Below, one piece after another: positions 285 through 49,618 of a DNA stretch of 64,000 nt; the first letter of the stretch is position 1; every line of letters begins with the position of its first letter. The DNA lies in assembly GCA_014905635.1 (NCBI GenBank), contig JABVCE010000018.1:682001-746000 (forward strand), written 5' to 3'. The position numbers were made by a program, and so were the translations under genes. This DNA comes from Scenedesmus sp. PABB004 (taxonomy: Eukaryota). The notes beneath the pieces were generated by a model. It made no database searches. It saw only the letters and a program-made list of their open reading frames with translations, and had not been told where the DNA came from.

Positions 285-2136
285 ATGGAGGCCGGGCCGG
301 CGCTGGGCGACATCGGGCTGCCTGCGATCACGGTCGCGGCGCTCGCGGGCGCGGGCCTGCGGGCGGCGCGGGACGTGCTGCTGCTGCCGCCGCTGGACCT
401 CGTGGAGCGCCTCAACCTCAGCGCCGCGCAGGCCGAGCAGCTGCTCGCGCACGTCGCGGTCAACGCGGCGCCCTCGTTCACCACGGCGCGCGCGGGGCGG
501 GCGCGGGCGCTGGCGCTGCTGCGCGCCGGAGCCGCGCGCCGCACGCCGCGAGCGCCGCGCGCCCGCCCGACGGCCCGGCCCGCGCAGGCGCTGGAGCTGT
601 TCACCACGGTGCACCAGCACTCGGTGAAGGTCCTGACCGGGCTGCCGGTGCGCGCCGCCCGGGCTGCCGCGCCCGCGCGCGCGCTGTGCCCCGCGCCAGC
701 GACGCACCGCCTGCCGCCGCCGCAGGGCCTGGACGCGGCGCTGCGCATCGGGCTGCCGCCGGGGGTGATCACGGAGCTGGTGGGGCCCGCGGGCGTGGGC
801 AAGAGCCAGATGTGCTACCGCATCGCGCTGCAGGTGGGGCGCGCTGCCGGCGCCGCTGCGCGCGCCGTGCGCGCCGGCGCGGCACACGGCCCGCCCGCGC
901 CCCGCAGGTGGCGCTGCCGCGCAGCCTGGGCGGGCTGGAGGCGGCGCTGATGTACATCGACACAGAGGGGAAGTTCAGCAGCCAGGCGCGGCGCGGCGCG
1001 GCGCGACCGCTTGGCGCGGCGCGGCACGGCACGGCCTGCCTGGCACCGCGCTGTGCAGCGAGGGCCTGCCGACCCGCCCGCCTGCCCGCGCTCTGGCCGC
1101 AGCGCCTGCTGGAGATGGCGACGGCGCGCATGCAGGCGGCGCAGCAGCAGCAGGGGCAGCAGAGGCAGCAGGGGCTCACCTACGAGGCGGCGGTGGAGCC
1201 GGTCCTCAACCGCGTGCTGGTCATGCGCCCGGGCTCGGCGGAGCAGCTGCAGGGCCAGCTGGTCAGCCTCAAGCAGGAGGTGCGCCGCGCGCGCTGCGCC
1301 GCGTGCGCCGCGTGCGCCGCAGCGCGCCTGCTGCAGCGCAGCAGCAGCCGAGGGCGGAGCGCGGCGCGCCGCGCGGCCGCGTGGCCGCAGGTGTCGCGAC
1401 GCGACATCAAGCTCATTCTGCTGGACAGCGTGGCCGCGCTGCTGCGCACCGAGCACGGCGGCGGCGACGCGGGCGCGCTCGCCGCGCGCGGGGAGCTGCT
1501 GGGCCGCCAGGCGGCGGCGCTCAAGGCGCTGGCGGAGGCGCACCACATACCCGTGGTGGTGACCAACCAGGCGCGGCCGCCGCGCGCCGCGCCACGCCGC
1601 GCGCCGCGCTGCGCCGCGCGCTCGGCGCGCGCTCGCCGGCCGGCGTCGCACGAGCGCGCGCGGCCGCCGCCGAGCGCGCGCGCGCGCCCGCCCGCCCGCG
1701 CGCGCAGGTCACCGCGCGGCCGCAGGGCGCCGCGACGCACAGCTTCCAGGCGCCCGCGGCGGCGGGCGGGCAGCTGTCGGCGGCGCTGGGCACCAAGTGG
1801 GCGCACGCGGTGAACGTGCGCCTCATACTCGAGCGCCTCGGCGAGCGCCGCTTCATCAAGGCGCGCGCGCGCGCGGCGCCCAGCAGCGCCGGCCCAGCAG
1901 CGCGGCCAGCCGCGCGCGCAGCAGGCGCCCCGCCGCCGCGTGACTGCGCGCGCGGCGTTGACCGCGCGCCGCGCCGCGCGCCGCAGATCGCCAAGTCGCC
2001 GATGAGCGCCAACCACGTGACCGAGTACGTCATCGCCGCGGGCGGCGTGGAGGAGCTGCCCGGCGCCGACCTGCCGCCCGCGCTCGCGCAGAGCGCGCTC
2101 GAGGCGCAGATCGCCAACGAGTACGCGCCGTGGTGA
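285..2136 (+). CDS. RAD51B: RAD51 paralog (RAD51B-like DNA repair protein), 8 exons
   Basis: Spliced exons give an N-terminal HhH-like region, Walker A ITELVGPAGVGKSQ, YIDTEGKFS, Walker B LILLDSVAAL, IPVVVTNQ, AALGTKWAHAVNVRLIL and IAKSP. Introns at about 486-587, 648-725, 834-907, 986-1102, 1280-1390, 1571-1707 and 1861-1986. Confidence 0.88.
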
Positions 2137-2256
2137 ACGGCGCGGCGCGGCGCGCGCGCGGTAAGCACCCCCCGCATCGGACCCGCGCGCCGCTCGTCGA
2201 TAGCGCCCGAATCTAGTCTTGTTTGTGCCCTCAAAAACACCCCATTTTGCGCCCAA

Positions 2257-2310
2257 TTGTTGTTGTTGGTTACACGGCGGGCTGTTGTTGTTGTTGGTTA
2301 CACGGCGGGG
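2257..2310 (-). repeat. Two tandem ~27-bp copies of CCCGCCGTGTAACCAACAACAACAA (minus strand)
   Basis: The direct repeat ttgttgttgttggttacacggcggg is seen twice. On the minus strand it reads TGTAA followed by (CAA)n. Confidence 0.8.
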
Positions 2311-3055
2311 CCCGGTACGCTCCGGGCGGTTGAGCGTCCCACTTCGGAACGCCTGGCGGGCCTGACCAACTCCCTCCCCTCCACCGCACGCGTCAGTGTC
2401 CTCCAAGCGACCAACCGAGCAGCCCGCAAACGGGATCGCATGCTGGCAAGCCGGCGCAGGGCGTGTAGCGAGCATGGCGCGGCCCAGGCGCGCGCAACTC
2501 ACCAGCAAACCCACGTGCACGCCGCCTGCTGGTCTCGATCGCGCGCCGGACCGTGGCACAAGGCAGGAGAACCGCGGCGAGGACCAACCCCCGCGCGCCC
2601 CCCGCCCCGCCGCTGCCCCCCGCGACCGACGCCGCCTTCTCCCCCCACCCCGGTCGCACGCACGCCCATCCCGGCGGTGCCCCGGGACTCCACACACACC
2701 GGCCTACAGAACTGTCAGCGGGGCAGCACCAAACACACACGCCCGCACACACACAAAGAGCCTCATGCACCGGCCTGCAGCCAGATGCGCGGCGCCGCCC
2801 GTGGGTCGGCGTCGTCCGGCACGGTGCAGAGGAAGGGGTGCTGCGCAGGGACCTGCGCAGACCACTGTCGCGGCCCAAAACAGGCTTTTGCGGGGTTGCC
2901 AGACACACTCGTTTCCAGGTCGACAAAACGGAACAAAAATCGGCCAATTTGAGGTCAGGCACTTTGGGATTTTGAGAAAAGGCGTATATAAATGCATTGC
3001 GCTCCAATGCGGCACTCCAACGGCGCTGCTGCTGCTGCCAGCGGCGAGGTGCCCC

Positions 3056-3127
3056 GGGAACTTGGTCTAGTGGTATGATTGTCCGTTTGGGTCGGACAGG
3101 TCGGCGGTTCGATCCCGCCAGTTCCCC
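3056..3127 (+). tRNA. trnP-UGG: tRNA-Pro (anticodon TGG)
   Basis: Full cloverleaf: acceptor GGGAACT/AGTTCCC, A-box TGGTCTAGTGG, anticodon arm GTCCG-TTTGGGT-CGGAC and T-arm GGCGG-TTCGATC-CCGCC. A T-rich Pol III terminator follows. Confidence 0.95.
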
Positions 3128-3536
3128 TTTCTTCTTTCTCCGCACAACTCTCCGCACGGCCCCGCGCGGGCGCTCCCGGGGGCTGTACGCCCCCGCCGCC
3201 GGGGCAGGCGCCGCTCCTCCCGGGCCGCGGCACGACGCCCGCCGCCAGCGGCCGCGACTCCAGCGCCGCGGGGCAGGCCCGCTCCCCGTCCAACGGTGGC
3301 CCCGTCTCAGAGCAGAGCGCGCCCGCAGCGGCCGTCGGGGTCCGGGCCGCTGCGACGGCCGCGGTTTTTCGGAAACGGCGGCGGCGGCGGCGGCACGCGC
3401 GGGCGCCCGGGGGCAAGGCGCGCCCGCAGATCGCGCCGGGCGCTCCGTACGCGTGTGCGACCTCCTCCCGCTGCCCGCTGGGCGCCGGCGGCGGCGGCCC
3501 GCCGCAGCGCGCTTCTGCAGCAGCGCCGGCGCGGCC

Positions 3537-6455
3537 ATGGCGGCTCGCACGCACGAACAGCTGGTCAGGGCCGCGCTTCCGGGCGCGCTGCATCGGGCCC
3601 GTGGCAACGACGGCGGCGGAGCGCCGCCGCCGCGTCTGCACAGCATTGCGCTCGGCATGGTGTCCACGTTCTGCGGCGGCGTCGTGCCGCACTGCGGCAC
3701 CCGGCTGCTGGTCGTGTATCAGTCGGCGTGGGACGGGCCCTGGTTCTACGCCCCGCCCACCGGGGCGGCGCTGGCGACCGCGCTCGGCGCACAGCTGGCG
3801 GCCGCGGCCAGCGGCACGCTCAGCTACGTCAACGTCGAGGGCGTGTGCGGCCGGGTCGTGCACCTGCTGGGCCCCGAGTGCCCCCCGGCGCCCTCGCGAC
3901 CGCCCTGGCGGTCGCGCCCGCGGCCCCGGTGCGCGGGGGCGCGGCCGCGGGCAACGCGGCCCTGGTCGCCACGGCGCAGCCCAGCGACAGGCCGCTGGCC
4001 ACCGCGGTGCTGTGCCTGGACCCCGGGGAGTCGCTGGACTTCGAAGCGGGCGACGAGGCCGAGCGCGCCCTGCTGGACACGCAGTCTGCGTGGACGGCCT
4101 GGTTGAGAGGCATGGACGCCGCGCTGCAGGTCATGTTCCCGCTGTACACCGACGCCGACCGAGCGGCGCTGCGCGGCGGGCTGCTGGTCGCCGACACCTT
4201 CGCGGCAGCGGTGACGCAGCTGACGCTGCTGCCGCTGGTGGGCGAGCACGGGCGCCCCCGCCTCGCGCTTGACGGCGCGCACCGCGTGCTGGCGGCGCTG
4301 CGCGCCGGCGGCGGCGCCGCCGCGGCAGCGCTGGCGCGCGTGCGCGACCCTGCGGCGGCGTGGGACTGGCTGCGCCAGCACGTGTTGCCGGCAGCCGGGG
4401 CGAGCAGCGAGCTTGGCGGCCTGCCCCGGCAGGCCGCGGCTTGGGTGGACGCCATCGCCGCCGGCGCGTCGGGCGTGCGGCTGCGCGCGGGGGCGGCGCT
4501 GCCGCTGCTGGACCTGGGCGCGTCGCGGGCTGGCGGGCTCACGCTCGCTCGGCGCTTCAGCAGCAGCGAGTTCCTGCTGCTGGCGTTTGCGCCGGCAAGC
4601 AGAGGCGCACTGGCGACCAAGTTTTCTGCGACGGCGGCCGCCACGGCGCTGGAGGGCGCAGGCGCAGAGCTCGCCGCCGCCATGGTGGTGCGCGAGAGCG
4701 TCGCAGCGCGGCGCTCAGTTCAGCTGCTGCTGGTGGAGCACAACGGCGCGCAAGCGGCTCCGCTGCTGCGGGCGGTGCAGCAGCCTGGCTGGGTCGGCGC
4801 GGACGCCGAGCCCTGGATGGACAGCATGCGCCGAGCCGGCTCGGCCTCCTCGTGGCACTGGCAGGAGCTGGCGCGGCTGCTGCGCAGCGCCCAGGAGGCA
4901 GCCGCCCTGACGCGCGTGGTGGCGGCAGGGGAGGCAGCGGGCGGCTGGACGCTGGTGGCGCCGGACGCTGGTGGCGCCGGCGCGTGCACCAGCCTCGCGG
5001 GCTTTGCCGCCGCCGCCGCCGCGGACGATCCCGACGCGGTCGCTGAGCTGTGGCGCTTTGTGGACAAGCTGCGTGGCGGCGCCATGGGCGATGCCGAGCA
5101 CGGGGAGCTGCTCAAGCTGCTGCAGGCTGCGCGCAACGCGGGCCCCGCGCTCGGCGCCGACGCTGGCACCGGCGGCGGCGACGGCGGCGGTGGCAGCCTC
5201 TTCATCTGGGCGCGGACGTCGACGCTGTACGGCACGGGCGCCCTCAGGGACAGCCTGGGCAGCCAGGTCGCCGCCTGCAGCGCGGCGGCAGCGCACGCAC
5301 TCGCATGCGCCGGCTTGCCGCCGCCACCCACCCTGCTGTGGGTCGAGGCGTGCTCTGTGCACAACCACCGCTGGCGCAGCCGCACCGCAGTCACCAGCCT
5401 GCTGGCGCAGGTGCAGCCTGGCGACACGGTGCTCGTGCCGTCGCCGTCGAGGGTACTTGCCGTTGCCGGCAGCTCGCCACGCCGCTGACGCCGCCGCCGT
5501 CGCCGCCGCCGCCGCTGCCTCCGCCGCGCAGGAGGGAGGCCGAGCGCGCCGAGCAGCGCGTCTGCAACGGCGTGTCCGCCGCGGTGCCGGCGGCGGGCAA
5601 CGCGGTGATGCGCTTGCTGCACGAGCTTGGCCAGTCCCGCAACGGCAACAGCGCCAGCAACAGCAACGGCGCCAGCACCAGCAACAGCACCAGCACCAGC
5701 CCTGGGTGCGACGTGCAGCCGCCGGTGCGCACGGCCATCCTCTTCACGACGGTCTGCCGGCTGAGCCGGCGGTCGGGCGTGCTACGCGAGGCTGTCATGC
5801 TCGCGCGGCAGCTGGGCGTGGCGCTGCTGGTGCTGCTGCACCCGCGTGAGGTGCTCGACGCGGTGTCCGCCGCCGACGGCGCCCTGCCCGACTACGTGGC
5901 GGCGGCGCTGGGCCCGCTGGCCGGCAGCGTGTCGGCCGCCGTTCGCGGCGCTGCCAACGCGCAGATCCACCACTGCCGCGCGGCAGCGTGGGCCAGCGGC
6001 GCGCCGGTGCTGCTGCCAGTGGACGTGGCGCACTGCGACGAGCCGCTGCTGGCCGCCGTGGAGGAGGGCGAGCGCGCTGCGGACCTCTTTGCGCACTCGT
6101 TTGCGGCCAGCTACAGCGCAGCTGTGCACGCGACGGCTGCGCAGCTGGCCGAGCGCGCGCAGGGCGCGTTTGCAGCCGCCGTCCTGGCGGCGGACAGCGC
6201 GGGCGTGCCGGAGGAGCAGCCCGCCATGCTCGCGGCCGCCAAGGCCGCGTTTGCAGCGGCAGCCGGACCCATCGGCCTGCCCGAGTCGTTCGAGGTGCGC
6301 GTGGGCATGCTGGCGGGGGCCGGCGACACGCCCGCCTGGGAGTGTGCGAGCTGCAACTGCAGCACGGGGCCCGCCAGCCGCGGTTGCTGCTGCCCCTGCC
6401 GCAACTGCGTCGCCGCGCGCGAGCTGCTGTGCCCGTGTGCAGCCGCACAGCACCA

Positions 6456-6500
<45 letters not shown>

Positions 6501-6993
6501 CGCGGGGCCCGCGGTGGAGGCGGCTTGCGCGTGCCCCCCAGGTTGCCCCTGCCTGTGTGGCTGCTGCGCGCGCTGCCACAGCGTCGCCAGCGTGGCGCTG
6601 GAGAGCAGCAAGCGCAAGCGCAGCGAGGACGAGCACGCGCCCTGGACGGTGGAGCTGTACACCGACGTGCTGACGGCGCGCGAGGCCTCACCCGCGGCCA
6701 CGCCGTCCCTCAAGGGGCTGCCGCAGCACGTGCTCGACCAGCACTCTCTCCACGACTGCCACGGCGCGTGGGCGCGCCTGGTCGCGTGGAGCGCGGTCGA
6801 CGGCGCGAGCGAGGCGGGCGTGGAGGTCAAGCTCGGCAGCGCCGGGCGGGGCCCCCGCGCGGGCAGGCGCGAGGAGCTGCCCGCACAGGTCTGCCGCCGC
6901 GTCTGCGACCGCGTGCAGCGCGAGCAGGAGGCCAAGCAGTCGAAGCAGGCGAAGCGCCAGGTCAGCACGGGGAGCCCGTCGCCGCGCGCGTGA
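3537..6993 (+). CDS. Large putative serine-recombinase (resolvase-like) fusion protein with a ParB/DGxHR-like motif, a Cys-rich region and an NLS; two frame junctions (~3885 and ~5453-5556)
   Basis: LALDGAHRVLAAL (4262-4300); LFIWARTST...SLGSQVAAC...LLAQVQPGDTVLV (5198-5440); GVSA...VMRLLHEL...AILFTTVCRLSRR..VLREAVMLARQLGVALLVL (5569-5840); LLAAVEEGER; CASCNC..CCCPCRNC..CPC..CACPPGCPCLCGCCARCH; SKRKRS. Confidence 0.6.
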
Positions 6994-7824
6994 GAGTGGG
7001 CTGGCGCGCCATTCCATCTTTGACCATTCACCAGTTGCCCCATCCACCCATGCACCTGATGCACCCCATCATGCATCCCATCATCTCCCTTGATGACGAC
7101 TGTATTAGAGGTGCAACAACCTCGCCCCCCTTCCTCGCCTCCCTCGTCCGCGCACGGCGGCGCGCGCACGCGCCAGACCGCCTTCGGGCCCCGCCGCCCG
7201 CCCCGGGCCCACGCGCTCCTTTTTGTGTGTTCCAGGCCGAAATCGGCGCAGCCAAGGGTACGTAGGGGGCCGGCGGCGCGCCGCCAGCCGTCGCGGGGGC
7301 GCAGGCGGGCCGCGCGGGCGCCCACCGGCGCCCGGCGCGCGCGCGCTGTGCTGAGAGCCCACCGCCTGCCCGGCCACCGCCTGCCCGGAGCACGAGTGTC
7401 CGGCGGTCAGGGGCGCCGCCGCCGGCCGGCGGCGGCGCAGGTAGGCGCGGCTCGCGCCCGGCCGGCGGCGCCGCCAGCCCCGGCGTGACGCCGTGCCGCG
7501 CCCCCCCCCCTGGCCCCGCGCCCGACCGCGCGCGCCGCTCGCCGCCGGCGCGACGTGTTTCGGGGGCGCCCAGCCGCAGCACTCCAGGCGCGGCGGCGGC
7601 GTGCCACGGCGCCGCACCCGTCCGCGCCGCTCCGCGCCGTTGAAGCGCACTGCGAAGGGCCGCTGACGCGCGCGCTGCCGCGGCCGGCGCTCCCGCACGC
7701 CCACCACGCGCGCCTAGTTCAACCGCCCGGCTCGCCTGAGCCACGCCCTGTTCGCCATGGACGCGCTGGGACGGCGCGGCGGCGGGCCACCCCTCTAGCC
7801 TGCAGCGGGGTCGCGGCGCTCCGC

Positions 7825-9847
7825 ATGGCGCCGCGAGCATGGCGACGGCTGGTGCTGCTGCTGGCCCTCTGCGCGGCGCTGCCGGGCTGCGCGCCAGCGG
7901 CAGCGGCGGCCGCCGAGCTCGACGCGGTGAGCGCGCAGCGCCTGGTCGTTCCGGGAGCCCGGCTGGCGTCTGACGGGCGTGCGAGGGTGCTGTGGCCGCC
8001 AGAGCGGCCCGCCGCTCAGCGCCGGGGGGCTGCGCGGCGGCAGCGGCGGCACCAGCACAGCGCCGCTGCTCGCTCGCTGCTGGTCGCGCGCCCACCACGC
8101 GCTGCCCGTCCACCCGCGCAGCTCGCGGCGCAGCTGTACCCGGGCCACACGCTGGTGGCGCTGTCGGTGGCGCGCAGCAGCGCGCTGGCGGCGGCGCTCG
8201 GCGCCGCGTTTGCGTCGAGCGACGCCGTGCTCACGGTGCTGCCGCCGGGCGCGCTGCTCGTCGACGCCGCCCTCACGCTCGGCGGCGGCCGCAGCCTGGT
8301 GCTGGCCACGCCCGCGGCCCTCGCGGCGGCGGCGGCGGCGGCGCGGCCGGCCGCGCGGCTGGCGCCGCCGCCGGGCCCGGCGCTGCGCGCCGCTGAGATG
8401 CTGGCGGTGCAGTGCGGCGGCACGGCCAAGCGGGGCGGCTTTGTGCAGGCCACGTGAGCGGCAGCAGCCGCGCGGCAGCGCCGTTGCCGGCAGGCGGCGG
8501 CGGGCGTGCGGCCGTCGTGCGCGCCCTGGCAGCCGACCCGCCCCCACGCCCCGCGTGCCCTGCGCAGGGGCGCCGCCTCGCTGGAGCTGCTGGGGCTGTC
8601 GATACGGGGCTGCCCCGCCACGGCGGTGGCCGCCACGCGCACGGCGCGGCTCGCCCTGCAGGTGCGCAGTGCCTCGGGCGTGGGGCCGGCGAGGGGCACG
8701 CCTTCTGCGCGGGCGCCGCCACGCCTGGGCCGCCGCCCACGCTCGCCGCGCCCCGCCGCGCGGCGCCTCGCAGGACTGCGAGCTGCTGGGAAACAACAAG
8801 CTCGCCCGGGCGGAGGCGGGCGGCGGCGTGATGGCAGAGGACGTGGCCGCGGTGGGCGGGCGGGCGCCGCCGCGCCGCGCGCCGCCGCCGCGCCGCGTGC
8901 CGCTGCCGCCGACGCGCGCTCGTGCCGTGCGCAGGTGGCGCTCACGCGCGTGCGCTGCGCCGGCAACTTTGCGACGCTGCAAGGCGGCTGCGTCAGCGCG
9001 CTGCGCGTGGGCGAGCTGGCGCTCGTCGACAGCGCCTGCACCGGCAACGTGGTGCGCGCGCGCCGCCGCGCAGCACAGGGGCGCCGCGCAGGGCCGCCGC
9101 TGCAGCCGCCGCCGCCGCGGCCGCCGGCGCCGCCGAGGTCGCCGCCCGCCTCCCGCCCCGCAGCGCGACGAGCCCGACCAGCCGGGCGGCGGCGGCTGCC
9201 TGTATGTCGAGGCGGCGCGCGCCACGCGCGTCGAGCGCTGCGACGTCTCCCACAACGCCGCCACGGGGGACGGCAACATCAAGGGGTGCGGCGCCCCCGG
9301 GGCCGGCGCCGCGCCGCGCGCGGCCGGCCAGCCAGCGCCGCGCGGCCCACGCGCTCACCGCGCCGTGCACATCCGCCGCCTTGCACACATCCGCCGCCGT
9401 GCACACATCCGCCGCCGCGGCAGGGGCGGCATCTATGCCTTTTACTCCGGCCCCGTGGACGTGGCGGACAGCAGCTTCACCAACAACAGCGCCGGCTGGC
9501 AGGGCGGCGCCATCCAGGCGAGCGACGTGGCCGCGCTGCGCGTGACGCGCAGCGCCTTTCGCGCCAACGGCTGGGTGCCGGGGGCGCCGGGGGCGCCGGG
9601 CTACCAACTCGGCTACGGCGGCGCGGTCGAGGTGGTGGGCAGCCGCTTCTCCGCGGCCAACGCGGTGAACCTCACGCTCGAGGGCTGCACGTTTGAGGCC
9701 AACGTCGCGGAGACGGGCGGCGCCGTCGCAGCGACGCAGTGGGGCGACGCGCGCGGGTCGGTGGCCGTGTCGCGCTGCACCTTCGTCAACAACACGGTGA
9801 GGAGCGCGGCGCGCGGGGCGCGCGCCGCGGCGCTGCGCGCGCCGTGC

Positions 9848-9885
<38 letters not shown>

Positions 9886-12800
9886 CCCACCCCTGCCCCC
9901 GCCGGGCGCCCACCCTGCCAGGCGTATGAGGGCGGTGCGCTGCACAACCAGGAGGCGCGCCGCATGGCCGTGACGGTCGCGGGCAGCACATTTGTGCGCA
10001 ACACCGCCGACAGCGGCGGCGCGATCAAGATCTTTGACGCCGCCGTGCTGCTGGACAACTGCACCTTCCTCTCAAACGCCGTGAGCAGAGGCGAAAGCAC
10101 CGCCGCCGCCGCCGCCGCAAAGCACCGCCGCCGCCGCCGCCGCCCCTGCCGCACACCGCGCAGGGGCAGAGGCCCAGCCGCGTGCGCCCGGCTGCGCGCG
10201 CCCGCCGCCGCCGCCGCCGACTGCCGGCCGCCACGCGGCGCGGCCGCCGCCGCGCAGGCCATCCTGGCGGACGGCGGCTCAATCCAGCTCTCGACCGGCA
10301 TCGGCCTCGGGCTGCGCAACGCGCAGGTCCTGCGCCGGCTGGTCATCGCCAACTCCAGCGCCGCGACCAACGGCGGCGCGCTGAGCGTGGCCGGCGGCGA
10401 CGCGCTGCTGCTGGAGGACGTGACCATCACCGCCGCCAAGGCGCGCGCCGCGGCGCGCGGGGCCGCGCGCGGGGGGCTGGTGCGCGCGCGCGTGCGCGTG
10501 CGCGCCGAAGGCGCTATCGCCGCCATGCGTCCGCACCGAACTGCCGCACTGCGCCGCCCGCCGCCCGCCACCCCCTCCCCCCGCCTGCGCCAGGCCGGCG
10601 GCGACGGCGGCGGCGCATACCTCGCCTCGCTGCCGCGCGCGGAGCTCGCGCGCTGCAGCATCGCCGGCAGCAGCGCGCGCCGCGGCGCGGGCGGGCTGGC
10701 GGCGGTCGAGGTGGCCAACCTCACGCTGGTGGACGTCCGCCTGATCGGCAACAGGGTGCGCCGCGCCGCGTCCCGCTCTGCTGCACCGCGCCGCGCCGCG
10801 AGCCAACGCCCGCCCACGCCGTCGCCGCCGCCGTCGCCGGTGCCGCCGCCGCGGCAGGGCGTGGTCGGCGGCGGCCTCGGCGCGCGCGGCGTGCGCGCGG
10901 GCGAGCTGCGGGGCTGCACGCTCTTTGGCAACGCCGCGAGCACGGCTGGCGGGGGGCTGGCGGCGCTCGGCTGCGCCCGCCTCACACTGGCCGGCGGCGC
11001 GCTGTCCGGCAACGTCGCGCCGCTGGGCGGCGGGCTCGCTGCGGACAGCAGCGGCCTGGCGCTGGACGGCGTGGCCATCGCCGACAACGTGGCGGCGCCG
11101 CAGGGCATGCCGGTGCGCGCCCGCGCCGCCGCCGCCGCCGCCGTCGCCAGGCGAACCCGCAGTCCCGCCGCCCCGTGCCGTGCCGCGCGCTCACGCGCTC
11201 CGCGCGCCCCCCGCCGCCCCGCGCCGCGGGCCGACCAGGCCGCCGCGGTGGCGCTCAACCGGCAGCCCCCAGGCGCGGCGCGCGGCGGGAGCGGGCTGCT
11301 GGCGTTTGAGTCGCTCGTGCACCCGCAGGGCAGCGGCGGCGGCGGCCTGGTGCAGCGCGGGTCGCTGGCGCTGTCGCGGTGCGCCGTGACCAACAACACC
11401 GCGCAGCGCGACGCCGGCGGGCTGCTGCTGGAGCAGCCGCGGCGGCTCGACGCGTCGCGCTGCGCGTTTGAGGCCAACACCGCCAACCTCGGCGAGGGCG
11501 GCGCGCTGCTCATGCGCGGCGTCGGCGCGCCGGCGCGCGGCGCGCTGGCGCGCTGCGCCTTTGCCCGCAACGCCGCACGCTCGGCCAGTGGCGGCGGCCT
11601 CGCGCTCGACTCGGGCCTCGGCGCGCTGCACGTCACGTGCGACGGCTGCACCTTTGACCGCAACGCCGCGGCCGCCGACGGCGGCGGCGTCGCCGCGAGC
11701 GGGCCGACCGCGTTTGCCTGCGACGCGTGCGACGCGATCGGCAACACCGCGGGCCGCAGCGGCGGCTGGCTCGCGTGCGCGGGCTGCGCGGCCGCGCGCC
11801 TCGCCGACGGCGCGGGCCGCGACAACGCCGCCGACCTCGCGGGCGGCTCGGTCGCGTGCGACGGCTGCGGCGCGTTCACGGCGCGCGGCACGGCCTGGTC
11901 GGCCAACACGGCGCTCACCGGCGGCGCGGTGGCGGTGCAGGCGACGCGCGACGTCGAGCTGCGGGGCTGCCGCTTCGACGACAACACCGCCACCGGCTCC
12001 GCGGCCGCCGGCCCCGCGCCCCGCCCCGGCCCCGCGCCCGGCGGCGGCGGGGCGGGCGCCGCGGCCGGCGCGGCGCGCGCGGAGCTCGCCGAGCGCATGC
12101 CGCCCGGCTGGCACCTGCTGTTTGACAGCGGCGCCGCCGGTGGCGGCGACGCGGGCTGCTCCGGCGGCCGCGGCTCGGGCGGCGGGCTCTGCGTGGGCGC
12201 CGCGGGGTCCGCGACCGTCGCGGACACCTCGCTCCGCGGCAACGCGGGCACGATCGGCGGCGCCATCTTCGCCTCGGCGGCGGCATGCGCCGGCTGCGGC
12301 GTGAGCCTGGTCGGCGTCGACGCGGCCGGCAACACCGCGACAGAGGCCGGCGGCGCGATCTACACCTCGACGCCGCGCGACGTACGCCTCGGCGGCGACG
12401 GCGGCGAGCCGGTGGGCCTCGCCGCCGCGTCGGCCGCGGTCGCTGCGCTCGCGGCGGCCAACGCCGCCGCGCCGGGCAGCCTCGCCTACGGGCCGGGAGC
12501 GGCGTCGTCGCCTGTCGCGCTCTCGCTGCTGCAGCCCGATGCCGACGCGCTGCCGGCGGCGGGCGACGCGCCGGCGGGCGACGCGCGGCGCCCCGCGGGC
12601 GCCCGCCTGGTCGGCGGGCGCGGCCGGCGCCTGCTGCAGGCGGGCGGCGGCGCGAGCTTTGGCGACGCGCTCACCGCAGCGACGCAGTACTACGGCGGCG
12701 GCGCGCAGCGCGGCGGCGGCGGCGACGACGCGGGCGGGCCCATGCCGGAGCTGCCGCCCGCGTGCCCGCCGCTCGGAGCGACGGTGCTCGGCCCCGGCCG

Positions 12801-13111
12801 CGTGGGCGTGGACGCGGGGCAGATCTTCTCGCTCCCCCTCTACGTCCTGGACGCCTTTGGCTCGCGCGTCTCGCGCGGCCCCGGGAGCGCCTGGCTCGCG
12901 AGCCTCGCGCCGCCGCCGGCCGGCGCGGGCGCGACGCTGTCGGGCGCGGCGCGCGGGCGGCTCGTCGCCGGCGCCGCGCTCCTGGACGGGCTCAGCCTCG
13001 GCGCGCCGCCGGGGAGCAGCCTCGTGCTGCCGCTCACCGCCAGCCCGGGCGAGGGCAGCGCCGACCAGGTGCGCGCGGCGCGCGCCACGCGCCGTGCCCG
13101 CGCCCGCCGTC

Positions 13112-13162
<51 letters not shown>

Positions 13163-15010
13163 CCGCTCACTGCTGGCCGGCGCCGCCGCCGCCGGCGCCG
13201 CGCGCGCGCCGCAGCCGCTCAACGCCAGCATCACCTTTGACGTGCGCCCCTGCCTCGCGGGGCAGCACGTGGGCGACGCGGCGCCACGCGGCGCCGCGTC
13301 GCGGCCGGACGCGTGCTTCGTGTGCGCCGCGCCGCTCTTCAGCTTTGACGCGCAGCGCGGCGCGTGCGTGGAGTGCCCCGCCAACGGCGTGTGCGTGGCG
13401 GGCATGGTCATCCCGCAGCAGGGCTGCTTCTCGCCGCACCCCCGCAGCGCGGCGATCCACGTGTGCCCCCACGCCGCCGCGTGCACGCGGCCCGCGGCGG
13501 CGATGGCCAACCTGCAGGGCCTTGCCTGCGCGAACCGGCGCCACGTCGACCCCGGCGCCATCGACGCGGAGCCCTGGACCGCGCTACAGTGCGCGCAAGG
13601 GTATGCGGGGCCGTTCTGCGGCGCCTGCCACCGCCCCGGGCGGCGGCACTGGCGCGCGGCGCCGCCCGGCGGGCCGCCCCGCGGCTACACCGTGGCGGGC
13701 GGGCCCGTGGAGCTGGCGGTGCCCGGGGGCGCGGCCCACGACGGCCGCGAGGCGTACGGCCGCGCGGCGGGGCGCTGCCGGCGCTGCCCGCACCCGGCGC
13801 TCGCGTGGCTGGCGTGGCTGGCCGTGCGCGCGCTGGACGTGGCCTTTGTGGGGCTGCTCGCGTCGCTCTGGCTCGTGCTGGGCTGGCTCACGCGCTCGCC
13901 GGCCGCGCTCGCGCTGGCGCGCCTCAAGCGCGCGCAGGGCAAGCGCGCGCGCTTCAGCAAGACCGCCGCCGTGGCGTCGCTCGGCAGCGCTCTGCGCGCG
14001 CTGTCGCTCCCGCGCAGCGCGAGCGGGCTGGGCGGCTCGCGCGCGAGTTCAATCGCCCTGAGCGACGCCGGCGCCACCGCCGGCGGCAAAGGCGGCGGCG
14101 GCGGTGGCGGCGACGGCGACAGCGTCACTGGCAGCATCGCCGGCGGCGGAATCGGCGGCCACAGCGGCGACGGCGGCGGCGTCACCATTGGCGGCGGCCG
14201 CAGTGCGCGCCCGCCGGTCGTGCGCAGCCGCAGCCGGCGCGACGTGTCGCGGCAGCCCAGCTTCAGGAGCGTTGCCGAGGAGCGGGAGGAGCTGGACGAC
14301 GGCGCAGCCGACCTGGCCAGCCCCTTTGCGGTGTCGCAGGGCCCGGCCGCCGTGCTGCCGGCGCGCGCGCCGGCGCGGCGCAGCCGCAGCTTTGGCAGGA
14401 GCGTGGGCGGCGACGACCCGGACGACCTCCCCAGCCCCTTTGCGTCGTCGCAGGGCCCGGCCGCGCCGCCGGCGCGCGCGCCGGCGCGGCGCAGCCGCAG
14501 CTTTGGCAGGAGCACCAGCGACATCTCCGACGACCTGGCCAGCCCCTCGGGCTTCGGCGCAGCGCAGGGTGTGAGCGGGCCGCAGCGGTTGCGCGCGCCC
14601 GCGCGGCGCAGCCACAGCTTCAACCGCGCGGCCGCCACCGCTGACGGCGGCATGGCAGGCCCGCTCTCTGCGCCGCCGAGCCCCGGCGGCGGCGGCGCGG
14701 GCTCGCCGGCGCCGCACACCGCCGGCCTGCCCGGGACCGGCGCGGGGGCGCCGCGCAGCACCAGCTTTGCGGGCGCGGAGGAGTCGGGGGACGGCTACGT
14801 ACGCGCCTGGCTGCGCATGCTGTCCGGGCAGCAACCGCGGCCGGGTGGCGTGGGCGCCGGCAGCCTGGACGGCAGCTTCAGCGGCAGCCTGCCGAGCGTG
14901 CGCGGGCCGCTGTCGCGCGCGCCGTCTGGCGTGTACGCCGTGGGCGACGCGCTGAGCACCACCTGGTCGTCTGCGCGCCTGGCGCTGGCCAGCCTGGAGG
15001 CCGCCGAGGG

Positions 15011-15042
<32 letters not shown>

Positions 15043-17076
15043 CGGGCGGCGCCGGCGGCGCGGACGCGGTCGCGGCGGAGCAGATGGCGCTGCTGCTGAT
15101 GGCGGTCAGGTACCTGGCCTGCACGGTGCAGGTGCGGCGGCGTGGCGCAGCCGCCAACGCCAGCAGCCGCGCGCGCGCGGCGGCCCCGCAGCGGCCCTGA
15201 CGCGCCGCCGCCGGCGCCGCCGCTGCCGCCGCACCGCCAGGTGGTTCTGGACTGCGCCCAGATGGCGGCCGTGGTGCTGGCGCAGGACGTGCTCTGGCGC
15301 ACGCCTGACTGGGTCGCGGCGGGGCTGTCTGCGGTCGTCGTCACGCAGGCCAACACCTGGCAGTGGGTGCCGTTTGACTGCCTCCTGCCGCCCAGCTCGC
15401 CCGCGTCGGCCGCCGCAGCGCAGACCATCCTGGCCATGCTGCTGCCACGTGAGCGCGCACGCGCGCTGCCGCCCGCCAGGGCGAGGGAGTGGGCGCCGCC
15501 GCCGGCACGCACGCACGCGGCCGCCCACCGCCGCCGACCGCGGCCGCTGCCGCGCGCAGTGATCTACACCGCCGTCGCCTTCCCGGTCATGGCTGCGCTC
15601 AAGCGCGCGCTGCGCGGCCGCATCGCCGCGGCCGTCGGTGACGCCTCGACGCGCGCCGCGCCGCCGGAGGCAGGTGCCGTCGGGCCGGCGGCCAACGGCG
15701 CCGCCCAAGCCACTGCCAACGGCGCCGCCCACGCCGCTGCCAACGGCTGCGCCGCCAACGGCGCCGCCACCGCGCTGGAGGAGCTGCGGGCGCCGGCCGG
15801 CAAGGGCGCGCCGCGACGGCGCCGCGGCGCGCGCGCCGCGCTGCGCGCGCTGCTGCCGCGCAGCGCCGGCGGCTGGCGCCTGCTCACGGCGGCGGGCGTG
15901 GCGAGCATGGCGTACAGCTACACCCTGTTTGTGGGCGCGCTGGTCAGCGCCTTCACCTGCCTGCGCCTCGCGCCGCCGCCGGGCCTGCCCGGGGAGATTG
16001 ACCTGCGGCGCGAGGTGTGGGTGCCCGACACGCAGCTCACCTGCTGGCGCGGCGAGCACGCGGGCGTGCTCGCCGCTGCGTTGCTGGTCGGCGCCCCGCT
16101 CCTGCTGGGCTACTGGTGGCTGCTGCTCGTGCTGGCCTGGCCGGGGGCGCGCGGCGCTGCGCCGGCGACCGCCGGCGCCGGCGCGGAAGGCGACGCGGAG
16201 GCGGGCGCCGGCGGCGTTGCTGGCTCCCCGCCGGCGGCGCCGGCGCCGGGCGCCGACGCCGGCTGCACGGTCGTTGACGGCCAGGCGCCCGCGGCGCTGG
16301 GCGACGCGGCCGCCGAGCCCGCCACCGGCGCGGCCGCGCCGGGCGCCGCGGCGCCGCCCCTGCCGGGCTGGCGCGCGCGCCTGCGCGCCTGCTGGGGCGC
16401 CGCGCGGCGCCGCGGCGCCGCGCTCCGCGCCTGGCCCGCGCGCGCTGTGTCGCCGCTGGTGGCGCGCTGCGCCGCGGCCGCCGCGGCCGCCGCGGCCGCG
16501 GGCGTGGACGGCACGCGCTGCGCCGGCCTGGGCGTGTGGGACGCGCGCTGGCGCTGGCAGTGGCTGGCGGGTCACGAGGTGCTCAAGGCCTGCGTGGCCG
16601 CGTGCGCGTGCGCCACGTCGATGCGCGCGCCCCACGCGCAGGCGCTGGCCGTCGCCGCGGCGGTCACGGCCAGCGCGTTCGTCACGTGGCTGCGCCACCC
16701 CGGCGGCAGCACGAGCATGGCCCGCCTGCTCTTCCTCGGCTGGGCGTGGGTGCAGCTGCTCGCGCTCGCGGCGCTCGTGCTCGCGCTGCCGGGCCTCAAC
16801 GGCGCCGCGTTTGGCGGCGTGCTGCTCGGCGTGCTGATCGTGTGCATGGCCCACGTCGCCGTCACGCTCGCCGCGCTCGTCGCGCGCTGCGGCGCCGCGT
16901 CGCGGGGGCTCGTCGAGCGCTTCGGCGCGGCGCGCGAGGCGCTCGGCGGCAGCTGGGGCGCGACGCCCGACGCCGAGGGCGACGACGACGAGGAGGAGGA
17001 CGAGGGGGAGGGGGAGGACGACGAGGCGGCAGAGGGGGATGGCGACGGCGCGGGCGCCGAGGCACGGCGCTCGTGA
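7825..17076 (+). CDS. Pmp-like right-handed beta-helix (GGA[ILV]/FxxN repeat) protein with signal peptide, Cys-rich stalk and multiple C-terminal TM helices
   Basis: Signal peptide MAPRAWRRLVLLLALCAALPG; many SFTNNSAGWQGGAI / CTFEANVAETGGAV type repeats; CxxC region at 13.3-13.8 kb; hydrophobic helices at 13.8 and 15.1-16.9 kb; many introns. Confidence 0.85.
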
Positions 17077-25126: not shown

Positions 25127-28100
25127 ATGAGCGCCCTGACGCTTCTCCTGGCGGCGCTGGCGGCCGCGGCGGCGGCGGCAGCGGCGGCGGCAGCAGCGGC
25201 GCCGCCGCCGCCGCCCGCCGCGGAGCCCGTCTGCGGCGTCGCGCCGGCGCGCATGCCCCTGTTCGACGACTCCACGACCGCGTGCTGGCAGTGGGGCCCG
25301 CGGAACGGGCGGCTGCGCTGGCGCGCGGCGGCGGCGGCGCCGGAGCAGCCGAGCGCCGTCGCAGCCTCCTGGGCGGAGCTGGTGCGCCTGGTGGCCGCCG
25401 CCGACGGGCCGCTCGCGGTCCGCCTGGCGCCCGGCACGCACACGGTGACAGCGCCGCTGCGCCTGGGCGCCGACGCGCCAGCCGTGGTCATCAGCGGGCC
25501 GGCGACGATCGAGTGCGGCGGCGGCGGCAGCGGCGGCAGCGGCCGTGCCGGCAGTGCGTTCATCATCACCGGCTCGGCGGGCGTGGAGCTGCGGGACCTC
25601 ACGATACGGGGCTGCAGCGGCACGGCGATCACCGTCAACGCGAGCGCGCCGAGCGCGACCGCGCCGCTCGCGGGCGGCGACGCTGGCCCGCCGCCGCCGC
25701 CGCACCTGCTGCTGCGCCGCGTCGCGCTTCGGCGCTGCGCCGGCGAGCGCGGCGGCGGCGTGGCGGCGACGCGCAGCCGCGTGGTGGCCGTGGACTGCGT
25801 CTTTGATGGCAACGCCGCGTCGGGCTGCGGCGGCGCGGTGTGGGCGGACCGCTCCGCGCTGCTGCTGGACGGCAGCTCCTTCACGGCCAACACCGGCAAC
25901 AAGTGCGGCGGCGACGGAGGGCGCGGGAGGGCGCAGGGGCGGGGCGGGGGGAGGGGCGGGCTGCTGCGGGACGGCTGCGGCGCGCTCACGCCCGCCCGCC
26001 GCCCGCGCCGCACCGCTGCGCGCAGTACGGCCGCGGACGACGTCTGCCGCGGCGGCGCGGTGCACGCGCAGGCGAGCTGGGTGGGCGTGACGGGGTGCCG
26101 CTTCGCCGGCAACGCCGGCGTCAACGGCAGCGCGCTGCTGCTGGTGGAGCCGGTGGGCGTCGCGCAGGTGCACGACAGCACCTTCGACGGCAACCGCCCG
26201 CGCCGCGGCGTGTCGGCGCAGTTCAAGGCCTCCACTGGCGCCGTGTCGGTGCTCGGCGCTGACCGCGCCGCCGCGGCCGCGGACGAGGACGAGGGCGCGC
26301 AGCTGTACCCGTTCCGGCTGGCGCGGCGCGCGCCGGGCGGCGGCGCTGCGCAGCCCTGCGAGCCGCCGCGGCAGGGCCTCGCGCTCGTGGGCTGCCGCTT
26401 CGCGAACAACACCGCCGCGCCCGCGGGTGCGGGGCGCGCGCGCGGCGCGCGCGGCGCCGGCACCGCCTGCCCGCCCGCCCACGGCCGCCGCGCCGCGCCG
26501 CGTCGCCGCAGGCGGCATGGGCGGCGCGGTGTCTGCGCACACCGCGTTCCTGGGGCTTTACAACTGCTCCCTGCGCGGCGCGCCCGACGGCCGCGGCGGC
26601 GCCGGCAGCGCGGGTGCAGGCGGCGGCGACGGCGACGACAGCGAGGGCGCCGGCGGGGGCGGGATTGGCGCGTTTCAGGGCGGCTGCGTGTATGGGCGCT
26701 ACGCCGACCTCCTGCTGTCCGGCTGCGCGCTCGCGCACTGCAACGCGCGCTTCGTCGGCGGCGGGCTGCGCGCGTCGCGCTCGACCGCGGTGCTGCGTGA
26801 CACCACGCTGGACGACTGCTACGCAGACATGGTGCGCCCGCGGCGGGCGCGAGCCGGCCCGGCGGGCTTGCGGGCTTGCGCTGGGGCCCGCCCCGCGCCC
26901 TGCTCGGCAGACCCCGCGCCGCCGCCGCCGCCGCGGCGTGGCCGTCAGGGCGGCGGCGTGATCGCGACCGACAGCCAGCTGGTGATGGCGGGCGTGGCGC
27001 TGCGGCGCGCGCGCGGGCTGAGCATCGGCGCGGGCGTCTACCTTGAGAGCAACGTGGCCACCGACGCGCACCTGGGCAACATCACGCTCGACCGCTGCGC
27101 CTGCGCGGGCAAGGGCGGCGGGCTGTACGCTGAGATTCTGGGGGCCGACGCGGAGCTGCGGCTCACCCTGCACGGCGCCCGCGTCACGCGCAACACGGTG
27201 CGCGCCGCGCGCCGCGCGCCGCGCGCCGCGCAGGCGCTCCGCCCTCAGCCGGCGCGCCCGCCCGCCCGCCCGCCCGCCCGCCCGCGCCGGCGCCGGCGCC
27301 GCGCAGGCGTTGCTGGGCGGCGGCCTGCTGCTCGCGGGCGTCACGCGCGGCGAGCTGGCCGGCAACCTGGTGGCGCACAACGCGGCGAGCCAGTTTGGCG
27401 GCGGGCTCGAGTGCCACGCGCCGTATGGCTCAGGGTACCGCCTGGCGCTGCTGGGCAACACCTGGCTCAACAACTCCGCGGCCGTGGGCGGCGGCGGCGT
27501 GAGCCTGCGCCCCTGCAACGCCACGATCAGGGGCGACCGCCTGCTCGCCAACCGCGCGGGCCAGGAGGGCGGCGGGCTCGCGCTGCTCGGCGGCACTGGC
27601 GTGTCGCTGCAGCGCGTGCTGCTGGCCTGCAACGCCGCGAGCGCGGGCGGCGGCGCCGTCGTGCGCGTGTCGGAGGAGGGCGAGGACAGCGCGCTCGCCG
27701 TCGCCTGCAGCAACGTCACCGCCAACGGCGGCGAGCCCGACCCCGCCGGCCAGGAGGCGTGCTTGGCGCGCGTCGCAGCGGCGCACGCTGCGACCGGACG
27801 CCTCGGCGCCGCCGCGGCGCGGGCCCTGCTCAGCGGCCCGCCCGGCACGGCGCGGGGCGGCGGCCTGCTGGTCGGGGTGGACCAGGCGGCGCGCCTGGTC
27901 GCGAGCGCCGTCGTCGGCAACGCTGCGTCGAGCTCGGGCGGCGGCGTGCACGTTGACAGCAACGCGACGCTTACGCTCGCAGCGCCCGGCGGCGCCGTGA
28001 GCCACAACAATTGCACGTCCGGCTCCGGCGGCGGCGCGTACCTGGACGAGGGCGCGGCGCTCGTCGCCGCCGACGCCGAGTGGCGCGGCAACCGGGTGCG

Positions 28101-45743: not shown

Positions 45744-47075
45744 TCAGCCCGCGAGCGCGCCGCCGTCCGCGCCCAGCAGCGCCGCCGCCTCGCCCGGCCG
45801 GCCCACGACCCGCCCGGCCACGAGGCGCTCCAGGCCCTCGCCCGCGTACGAGAGCAGCGGCGGGACCTCCACGCCCGTGCAGCCCGGCGCGAGCGCGCCG
45901 CCCGCCGCCACGACCCAGCGCGCGCCCTGCGCGAGCACCGCTGCGCGCGCCGTGTTTGGCGAGTCGCCCGCGGCGCTGCCGGGCGCATTCTTGACCGGCG
46001 CAAACTGCTCCGCCCGCTCCACCTGCGCAAGCGGGCGCGCGGCGGCCGCGCCGCGCGGCGTGTGCGCGGGGCGGCGGCCGCCGCACGCGCGCGCCGCCGC
46101 GGCAGCGCTCCGCCCCTGTCGCTCCGCCCGCGCCGCGCCGCGCGCCACGCTCTCCCCGCCCCGCGCGCGCCTCGAGCAGCGTGGCGCGCTCCGCGGAGGC
46201 AAAGGGGTCAAATATGAACATCTCCAGCTTCAGCCCGCCCACCGCCCCGCCGCCCTTGGCGGGGATGGCCTTGCGCGCGAGGTGGTACGCGCCCGCGGCG
46301 CGCAGGCCGGCCGCCGCGGCCTGCAGCCAGGGGAGGGAGAACCAGTGCATGCAGATGTTGGACCAGCCGTACGCGAGCGACGAGCACCCGGGCAGCGTCG
46401 ACTCGGCGAGCCCCGGCGGCAGCTCGCTGTACTCGAGCACCTGGAGGGGGGGATGGTGTTGGTGCGCGCGACGCGGCGCGGCGGTGGGTGCGCGCGTGGG
46501 CCGGGCTGGGGTGCGCGGCGTGCTGCGCCGCGCCACGGCGCGCCGCACCTGCAGCCGCCCCGCCGCGTCGCGCGCAAACACGCCGACCTTCTCCCCCGGG
46601 TGCGCCTTGGCGAGCACGCGCGCGCCGAGCGCGGCGGCGCGCTCCACGCACGCGCCGACAAACACGGGGTCGCCCAGCCGCGCGAGGGCGTTGTCCACGC
46701 AATACACGTCCACGCCCACCAGCCCTGCGGCGGCCATGGCCGCGAGCGCGCCGCTCGCCTGCAGCGCCCGGTACAGGCCGCCGTTGCCGTCGGGCGCGGA
46801 CGCAACCTGCGGCGCGCGGCGCGCGGCTCGCAGGTGGGTGCGGGCTCGGCGTGGGCGCCCGCCGCGCGCGCGCGCGCGCGCGCCCCCACGCGCCGCCGCC
46901 AGCGCCGGCGCCGCGCCTGGCAGGGGGACTGCATGATGACCCGCCCCTCGTGCGTGAGGCAGGGCAGCGTGCCCTGCTGGAAGAAGGTCACCTGCGCCCG
47001 CGAGAGCCCGAAGAAGCCGTGCGCCTCAAAGTGCGCCCTGGCGCGCGGCGGCGGCGCCCGCGCCAGCGACGTCCG

Positions 47076-47106
<31 letters not shown>

Positions 47107-49111: not shown

Positions 49112-49618
49112 GGCGCCCCCTGCGCGGCACGGCGCGGGCGTGAGCAGCGGCCGCCGCCGCCGCGGGCCGCGCCGCGCCGGGGGCGGCGCCGCGCGCGGTG
49201 CCGCTGCGCCCGGAGCTGTACGGAAGCTTTTCCCGCTCGCCAGGCCCCCAGCCGCCGGCGGGGAGCGCGCCGCGAGCGATCGCGTGCGGCCCGTTGCGAG
49301 AGCCGCCCACCTCTCGCGCTGGATCGCCCGCTGCGAGCGCTGCGCACGCGGTGCGTGCTCCCGGGCAATGAAGGAGTGCGAAGAGACAGGCCGCGGGCCG
49401 CGGGCGTGAAGTGGGGCTGTCCGGCGGTTGCGCTGGTGTGGCGCGGCGGCCGAGCGGTCGGCCGAGCGGCCGGGGCTCAGCGGCGATGTCGTGCTGCCCC
49501 TAACAAGGCCACCACGATCTCCGCCAACCTCTCCACACTCACGCCGGCCGCTGCCGCCGCACTCGCACTCGCGCCGCCGCCGCGCGCGCGCGCGCCCGAC
49601 CGCCGCCGCCGCCGCAGC

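Follow-up and report, generated by a model that had tools for sequence, protein, structure and literature searches.

A probable deletion derivative of a divergent family with tandem serine recombinase domains in Scenedesmus sp. PABB004

To our knowledge, serine recombinases are essentially a prokaryotic and viral class of enzymes. Their chemistry, with a phosphoserine link and subunit rotation, is established for resolvases and invertases. Here we report on a gene of the green alga Scenedesmus sp. PABB004 located at positions 3537-6993 on the forward strand of a 64,000-nucleotide stretch of contig JABVCE010000018.1 (the whole stretch that was analysed, referred to below as the window). Judged by its sequence relationships, the gene is a descendant of bacterial-type serine recombinases. 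We regard it, with a probability of about two in three, as the counterpart of HT031_001838 in a divergent, nuclear and intron-bearing family with two serine recombinase domains in tandem, and the copy in the window as a deletion derivative, that is, a recently inactivated gene or a remnant. The family is small, very divergent and apparently undescribed; no published description of a green-algal or tandem serine recombinase family was found in the full-text literature, subscription journals lying outside the coverage.

The small serine recombinases (gamma-delta/Tn3, Sin, Gin/Hin; PF00239) resemble the first serine recombinase domain (SR1) of HT031_001838 in their fold, the superposition of the predicted domain giving Z scores of 14.2 with Sin, 12.0 with gamma-delta and 11.2 with Gin. 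The Arg-x-Ser nucleophile motif, whose Ser and Arg we take to be positions 10 and 8 in gamma-delta numbering, and the D67/R68/R71 cluster can be aligned in the SR1 of the family, and the long E-like helix after strand 4 is also present in the SR1 model. In the alignment, the acidic/Arg pairs of helix E look replaced relative to those that we assume for the resolvases. Unlike the small serine recombinases, neither the window gene nor HT031_001838 has a detectable C-terminal helix-turn-helix. The family further differs by about 520 additional N-terminal residues, whose fold is unrecognised, by two catalytic domains per chain and by its nuclear genes, which appear to contain spliceosomal introns.

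Described eukaryotic serine recombinases are IS607-like and come from amoebae, fungi and stramenopiles, according to two surveys (PMC3673617, PMC3627910). The first lists 80 sequences of IS607-like type from Amoebozoa, Ascomycetes, Basidiomycetes and Stramenopiles (Gilbert & Cordaux 2013, PMC3673617), and the second reports TnpA_IS607-like serine recombinases in Fanzor2 elements (Bao & Jurka 2013, PMC3627910). The likeness to IS607-family TnpA lies in the occurrence of serine recombinase catalytic domains in eukaryotic nuclear genomes. In contrast to TnpA, the family described here lacks the MerR-type N-terminal helix-turn-helix, no such family being matched by Pfam in the window gene or HT031_001838. 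The IS607 model NF033518 of NCBIfam gave 15.7 bits with one distant homologue (P0005) against a cutoff of 110, and no match with P0004, P0011, HT031_001838 or the window. Tandem catalytic domains set this green-algal-type family apart as well, and the phyla given in the IS607 survey (PMC3673617) do not include green algae. Large serine integrases (PhiC31, Bxb1, TP901-1, LI) are long multi-domain proteins like the members of the family, and their catalytic domain superposes on SR1 of HT031_001838 with Z scores of 10.6-11.8. The extra mass of the family, however, is N-terminal and a second catalytic domain takes the place of the integrase modules: neither Recombinase (PF07508) nor the zinc ribbon (PF13408) was found in the window or HT031_001838 at E<=10.

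The family of HT031_001838 and its two catalytic domains

HT031_001838 (P0003), a hypothetical protein of 1151 amino acids from Scenedesmus sp. PABB004, was the only relative found in a word-indexed search of 5.8 billion clusters (75% identity, E 1.2e-198, 100% coverage of the queried part). It passes the Pfam Resolvase profile (PF00239) with E 8.5e-7 and 29.6 bits against a cutoff of 23.3 over residues 597-643. All seven matches of this protein to PDB sequences (phmmer, E<=10) are Tn3 or gamma-delta resolvase, residues 48-92 of the resolvase aligning to 600-644 and placing D619, R620 and R623 opposite D67, R68 and R71. An exhaustive phmmer search with HT031_001838 through 1.84 billion representatives added 27 homologues with E values from 1.6e-37 to 3e-4. 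Most of them are fragments of 90-420 amino acids, and several begin with Val, like the output of a prokaryotic gene caller. The Resolvase profile is matched at E<=0.01 by 21 of the 27 and the 23.3-bit cutoff is reached by 17, the best match being that of P0005 (3.9e-11, profile positions 4-100). P0005 also scored 0.89 in the ESM Atlas with a Resolvase cluster at rank 3, which we treat as a lead only. Among the 28 proteins there is no prokaryotic or viral serine recombinase at E<=1e-3, which argues against a recent transfer. Searches with the family alignment gave 18 pattern matches in metagenome contigs, none of them confirmed, and six loci in viral contigs matching only the GD..DR stretch (about 70 residues) of ordinary phage recombinases.

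Alignments of the family reveal a common layout in which the N-terminal region of about 520 residues is followed by SR1, a short linker, a second domain (SR2) and a basic C-terminal tail. SR1 follows the pattern xIFARTSS ... E-CSV-HRP-DR ... GD-V-VASPDRLAR ... G-A-L-A and continues into a long helix. The positions corresponding to S39 and R45 are conserved in 19/19 sequences each, R68 in 22/22 and R71 in 20/21, and the strand-1 nucleophile motif has its Arg in 9 and its Ser in 7 of the 11 sequences that cover the column. In the AlphaFold2 (AF2) model of HT031_001838 residues 511-1012, the mean predicted local distance difference test score (pLDDT) is 62.7; within SR1, means over 10-residue blocks range from 61 to 96 and are mostly 84-96. 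All listed matches of the SR1 model in Foldseek at E<=1e-3 are serine recombinases. VIA-align placed Sin (3pkz) first with Z 14.2, 121 of 122 residues being aligned at a root-mean-square deviation of 3.0, followed by gamma-delta, Gin, Tn3 and the TP901-1, PhiC31, Bxb1 and LI integrases; the top 28 rows, with Z from 14.2 to 7.6, are all serine recombinases and the next Z is 5.5. Thus, SR1 of HT031_001838 is predicted to adopt the full catalytic-domain fold of a serine recombinase.

SR2 has the pattern xFARVS ... SL-RQ--F and, where the sequence continues, DGVSA ... TS-DRL-R ... GV-LLVLL. Its xARVS motif retains Arg and Ser in 16/18 sequences each; few sequences reach its back half, where R68 is kept in 5/5 and R71 in 4/5. 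That SR2 is a second serine recombinase domain is supported by three observations. The order of secondary structures in the AF2 model is compatible with such a domain, the SR2 profile aligned to the SR1 profile over 128 columns in a single comparison (probability 72.6%, E 3.2e-5), and a PHROG model of DNA invertases matches the SR2 stretch of the homologue P0011 (residues 309-332).

Of the 27 homologues, thirteen stop with a Gly in one shared column, just past SL-RQ--F. Such ends are expected if a prokaryotic gene caller reads into a phase-2 intron with a GTGAG donor, and we therefore infer a conserved spliceosomal intron at this point of the family genes. Several further fragments start just before the E-CSV strand, a hint at a second shared intron.

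Coding status and lesions of the window copy

The GC content of the window ranges from 0.67 to 0.84 over 500 nt and is about 0.76-0.79 across the recombinase gene. In such GC-rich DNA stop-free frames occur everywhere (51 of at least 60 amino acids overlap positions 2500-8500, with all six frames represented), so the length of an open reading frame is no evidence of coding. Position-specific GC periodicity, however, runs through three successive frames. The GC content at third codon positions (GC3) is 0.87-0.97 and that at second positions 0.60-0.70 in frame pos%3=0 (about 3530-3880), the same pattern of high third and low second positions is seen in frame pos%3=2 (about 3900-5450), and GC3 is 0.87-0.98 in frame pos%3=1 (about 5530-6990). 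The order of high and low codon positions agrees with the + strand, and the pattern is absent from both flanks, 2900-3530 and beyond 6990. Hence 3537-6993 is a genuine coding gene. It is intron-poor, with two exons of 1.9 and 1.5 kb compared to coding segments of about 0.2-0.7 kb elsewhere in the window, which fits a transposon-derived or acquired origin and is no proof of it.

HT031_001838 matched a single locus in the window, in four blocks and three frames (Table 1). At the first frame switch (3881-3887) it aligns straight across with no intervening sequence, GPEC-P-P being followed by GALA at the C6 run. Because the alignment passes 3869-3887 without a gap in two frames, this switch is a one-base gap and not an intron; a frameshift mutation or else a mistake in the assembly accounts for the base lacking at 3881-3886. 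At the second switch, 83 nt between 5455 and 5539 stand against 173 residues of HT031_001838 (622-794). This segment is also present in distant homologues and therefore the window carries the derived state. The window copy has thereby lost three elements of SR1 (helix D, strand 4, helix E) and two of SR2 (strand 1, with its Ser, and helix A), along with the linker between the domains. The junction at 5453-5531 starts with GTACTT and ends in CAG/G, the single G completing a split codon in phase 2 like the conserved family intron. It is probably a remnant of this intron abutting a deletion, and the donor/acceptor pair 5453/5531 leaves the frame shifted, so that a stop codon is reached at 5847-5849.

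What is left of SR1 comprises ARTST on strand 1, then EACSV, HRWRSR and GDTVLV-PSPSR, and ends after the Arg matching resolvase R68. The remainder of SR2 reads RVCNGVSA, a low-complexity loop rich in N and S, AILFTTVCRLSRR and ARQLGVALLVLL, and continues to LLAAVEEGER. The N/S-rich run occupies the loop where HT031_001838 has an S/A-rich run of similar length. The D67/R68/R71 cluster is incomplete in both halves: SR1 has S-R and then ends, so that R71 is absent, and the SR2 half has C-R-L-S-R with Cys at the position of D67. Ser at the D67 position of SR1 occurs in other family members, too. Arg and the nucleophile Ser of strand 1 are present in SR1 of the window (ARTST); the SR2 copy of the motif is absent. 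By tblastn neither domain is whole, so that the four-stranded sheet, helices A-D and long helix E of a complete serine recombinase fold are found in neither. As the intervening 173 residues are absent, recombinase activity is not to be expected of the window copy, whose sequence most likely reflects a loss of this function.

Two stretches of the window have no counterpart in the HT031_001838 model. One comprises some 35 codons around 6070-6170; the other is the Cys/poly-Ala region 6379-6561, which tblastn skips and for which the model has only WDCCARCHS. They are either window-specific insertions or introns that were removed in the PABB004 gene model. The Cys-rich stretch had no Pfam match.

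A preliminary description of the locus, made from the sequence before these comparisons, had proposed a real gene of about 3.4 kb beside a tRNA gene, and both points are borne out, the former by codon-position periodicity and the latter by a tRNA-Pro (UGG) that ARAGORN placed 410 nt upstream of the ATG. This tRNA gene is a neighbour; it is not shown to belong to the recombinase gene or to any element. All motifs quoted in the description were recovered in place, including the putative nucleophile Ser at 5219-5221. Its estimate of one or two introns at most was right in that the gene is intron-poor relative to its neighbours, but the first frame switch is no intron. Likewise, the assignment to serine recombinases stands for ancestry, given the Resolvase match of HT031_001838, the SR1 fold and the conserved Ser position, and does not extend to a probably active enzyme. 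The resolvase-like stretches, read there as one domain, are the front half of SR1 joined to the back half of SR2. The cluster of about 18 Cys exists in the window (18 Cys in 82 residues) but is absent from the HT031_001838 model, and the SKRKR patch is present, KRKR being common to both proteins.

Table 1. Coordinates of the gene, its motifs, its alignment with HT031_001838 and the nearby tRNA gene
Feature	Positions	Strand or frame	Basis or remark
tRNA-Pro (anticodon UGG)	3056-3127	+	ARAGORN; 410 nt upstream of ATG
Coding segment A, N-terminal 117 residues of family protein	3537-3886	+	ATG start, frame pos%3=0; GC3 periodicity; tblastn
C6 homopolymer, one base short relative to frame of HT031_001838	3881-3886	+	tblastn, sequence reading
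Coding segment B, first part, family-specific N-terminal region	3887-5191	+	frame pos%3=2; 76% identity to HT031_001838
LALDGAHRVLAAL, DGxHR look-alike	4262-4300	+	sequence reading
Front half of SR1	5192-5452	+	aligned to HT031_001838 533-621; HT031_001838 601-644 opposite Tn3 resolvase 49-92
FIWARTST	5201-5224	+	motif located
ARTST	5210-5224	+	Arg 5213-5215, Ser 5219-5221
SLGSQ	5252-5266	+	motif located
LLAQVQPGDTVLV	5399-5437	+	motif located
Junction without counterpart of HT031_001838 622-794	5453-5532	+	starts GTACTT, ends CAG/G; tblastn gap
Coding segment C, first part, back half of SR2	5533-6075	+	frame pos%3=1; tblastn to HT031_001838
N/S-rich low-complexity run NGNSASNSNGASTSNSTSTS	5641-5700	+	in frame
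TVCRLSR	5749-5769	+	motif located
ARQLGVALLVLL	5803-5838	+	motif located
LLAAVEEGER	6046-6075	+	motif located
Cys-rich stretch, 18 Cys/82 residues	6337-6582	+	count
16-Ala run, in frame, inside Cys-rich stretch	6457-6504	+	count
SKRKR basic patch	6607-6621	+	AKRKR opposite in HT031_001838
Basic patch and conserved C-terminal tail	6607-6993	+	47% identity to HT031_001838 1017-1150; GC3 0.93-0.98
WTVELYTDVL	6643-6672	+	motif located
Stop codon	6991-6993	+	sequence reading
tblastn, HT031_001838 1-117	3537-3887	frame +3	78% identity
tblastn, HT031_001838 112-621	3869-5455	frame +2	76% identity
tblastn, HT031_001838 795-1034	5539-6378	frame +1	56% identity
tblastn, HT031_001838 1017-1150	6562-6957	frame +1	47% identity

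Proposed mechanism and competing readings

By analogy with resolvases and invertases, the strand-1 Ser of intact members would attack the scissile phosphate and form a 5'-phosphoserine link, paired active sites would cut both strands, and strand exchange would proceed by subunit rotation about the helix-E interface. Since a chain carries two catalytic domains with an Arg-x-Ser apiece, one polypeptide might furnish the pair of active sites required at a crossover site. DNA would have to be recognised by the N-terminal region or the basic tail, in neither of which a DNA-binding fold was found; the KRKR patch could plausibly direct the protein to the nucleus. Catalytic activity of the intact members, the single-chain dimer and the inactivity of the window copy are what we infer. 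Only tentatively, and with considerable doubt, do we extend this to an undescribed, long-resident green-algal family (Scenedesmus/Chlamydomonas type) of single-chain serine recombinase dimers, with two complete catalytic domains each carrying a nucleophile Ser and a new large N-terminal domain, whose intact members would be active site-specific recombinases or transposases of a new eukaryotic element and of which the window holds a freshly decayed copy.

Several observations weigh against a decayed member of a tandem serine recombinase family. The translations of the window matched nothing in Pfam (E<=10; the scan covered the window pieces P0001, P0002 and 3537-4106), NCBIfam (E<=1) or PHROGs (E<=0.1). 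Since the window's own pieces match no family, the assignment of the locus rests on its relative HT031_001838; with PF00239, the profile named as a check in the preliminary description, the latter scored its 29.6 bits and the former gave no match at E<=10. D67 of SR1 is kept in only 13 of 22 sequences, the other nine having S, C or G. SR2 is modelled at low confidence and escapes Pfam in HT031_001838 and the 27 homologues, and Pfam identified no DNA-binding domain in the window or HT031_001838. A green-algal origin of the 27 homologues is putative; they are rich in Ala and Gln, as are proteins of green algae. Taken to the extreme, the absence of profile matches to the window's own pieces and the extreme composition would suit chance resemblance, the resolvase-like motifs arising in Ala/Arg/Leu-rich, GC-rich coding sequence with no tie to recombinases. 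A protein of 75% identity that exceeds the Pfam cutoff, Resolvase matches at E<=0.01 in 21 of 27 distant homologues, and a predicted SR1 fold that follows solved serine recombinases over 121 of 122 residues (Z 14.2) make chance hardly credible. Other objections concern the lesions. GC3 of 0.9-0.98 in all three segments means that decay is recent or that the gene is still used. Assembly errors are frequent in homopolymers such as the one that holds the one-base gap, and a collapse during assembly could account for the missing 173 codons. Splice-site enumeration also found GT..AG pairs that preserve the frame, for instance 5453..5538.

These same features lend themselves to an intact and expressed gene, in which the C6 gap is an assembly error and a short intron (e.g. 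5453-5538) joins the exons. The product, a lineage-specific shortened protein, would be a rearranged recombinase or a non-catalytic DNA-binding or regulatory protein and would retain both half domains, the first of them with its Ser, between the N-terminal region and the basic tail. The very strong GC3 periodicity down to the stop codon, the conservation of the tail with HT031_001838, the position of the frameshift in C6 and the existence of 65 frame-preserving GT/GC..AG combinations, including AGG/GTACTT..GGGAG/G at 5453..5538, are all in accordance with such a protein. Its SR1 strand 3 would, however, directly precede SR2 strand 2, some elements would be duplicated, and the omission of SR1 helix D, strand 4 and helix E and of SR2 strand 1 and helix A makes serine recombinase folding unlikely. 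Moreover, the only good donor does not agree in phase with the conserved acceptor at 5531, and identity to HT031_001838, which is 76-78% in the blocks before the junction, drops to 56% and 47% in those after it. Overall, we consider an intact shortened gene rather unlikely. Still less probable is a mobile or integrative element, active now or until recently, that would have inserted beside tRNA-Pro and have this gene for its recombinase; the preliminary description had suggested a possibly mobile recombinase. The gene is indeed derived from serine recombinases and intron-poor among its neighbours, the tRNA gene is 410 nt away, and the distribution looks patchy, the Rad51-like neighbour having its best relative in Tetradesmus obliquus, yet no serine recombinase relative being labelled Tetradesmus. 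But a search of positions 2100-8200 for terminal inverted and direct repeats brought up nothing except GC-rich low complexity, and the 3' 21 nt of the tRNA have no second occurrence in the 64 kb at up to three mismatches. The gene has one copy in the window, the genes on either side are ordinary host genes, one for a member of the Rad51 family and one for a protein with beta-helix repeats, and half of each catalytic domain is missing. The apparently conserved spliceosomal intron in family members and the absence of prokaryotic or viral serine recombinases at E<=1e-3 among the 28 proteins speak against it as well. A scan of 51 coding segments from the window matched no TnpB/Fanzor-type family, in agreement with the preliminary description, which had seen no such partner. 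An active mobile element beside the tRNA gene is not shown, and for the window copy it is unlikely. A deletion derivative of the tandem-domain family therefore remains the reading that we prefer.

N-terminal region, neighbouring genes and significance of the family

The N-terminal region matched no Pfam, NCBIfam or PHROG family. In the AF2 model of window positions 3869-5170 (mean pLDDT 59.7), helices cover residues 63-200 and a small alpha/beta unit covers 230-325. A ParB/DGxHR-like domain had been proposed for this region on account of a DGAHR motif; with ParB/Srx and DGQHR (DndB-like) domains, these five letters in the Scenedesmus pair (the window gene and HT031_001838) are the only shared feature. 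A ParB/Srx (PF02195) or DGQHR domain is not supported, as no such profile matched the window or HT031_001838 at E<=10 (Pfam) or E<=1 (NCBIfam) and the family does not conserve the motif. Its D, H and R are all replaced in five of five homologues outside the Scenedesmus pair (D by F/F/A/Y/Y, H by A/R/R/E/Q, R by L/L/I/L/V), while other columns, namely AD--A, P, G and three Trp, are invariant in the pair and the five distant homologues. In the low-confidence model the motif lies within a predicted helix (128-147). With this weak model, the best Foldseek match had an E value of 0.23 with no ParB among those listed, and VIA-align returned only generic ferredoxin-like matches to residues 228-324 (Z<=7.5) and no ParB-like chain. 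Bacterial clusters in the ESM Atlas, at scores of up to 0.83, are a lead only.

Upstream of the tRNA gene lies a Rad51/RecA-family gene (about 255-2133, +; Pfam Rad51, 5e-8) with at least one ordinary intron, whose best relative is T. obliquus OEZ85_004844 (80% identity over the matched part), with no protein of PABB004 among the matches listed. The vicinity of a Rad51 paralogue to a recombinase-derived gene may be a coincidence. Two long coding runs on the + strand, 8098-16218, which is the downstream neighbour, and 25193-33481, match right-handed beta-helix and Chlamydia PMP repeats and look like large secreted or cell-surface repeat proteins by sequence; a weak TRP-channel-like match is located at the end of the second. 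Close to the end of the window, matches to Pfam CxC3 (61632-61994, +, E 1.1e-11) and, weakly, to KDZ transposase (62614-62991, +, E 8.3e-4) identify 61632-62991 (+) as a putative transposon gene of the Kyakuja-Dileera-Zisupton type. Ordinary host genes include those for a UDP-glucose pyrophosphorylase (46489-47669, -, E 1.4e-11), an SCP2 sterol-transfer domain (48692-49171, -, E 5.3e-9) and a Peptidase_M23 domain (54466-54789, +, E 2.8e-8).

In summary, what sets the family apart is its apparent residence in green-algal nuclear genomes with introns, its divergence, its tandem catalytic domains and its large N-terminal region. The value of the window copy itself is lower since it is apparently broken; its main use is to point the way to the family and to offer a naturally occurring deletion variant. 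Should intact members prove active, they would provide a new recombinase scaffold adapted to eukaryotes and might be the sign of a domesticated recombinase or of mobile DNA of a new eukaryotic class.

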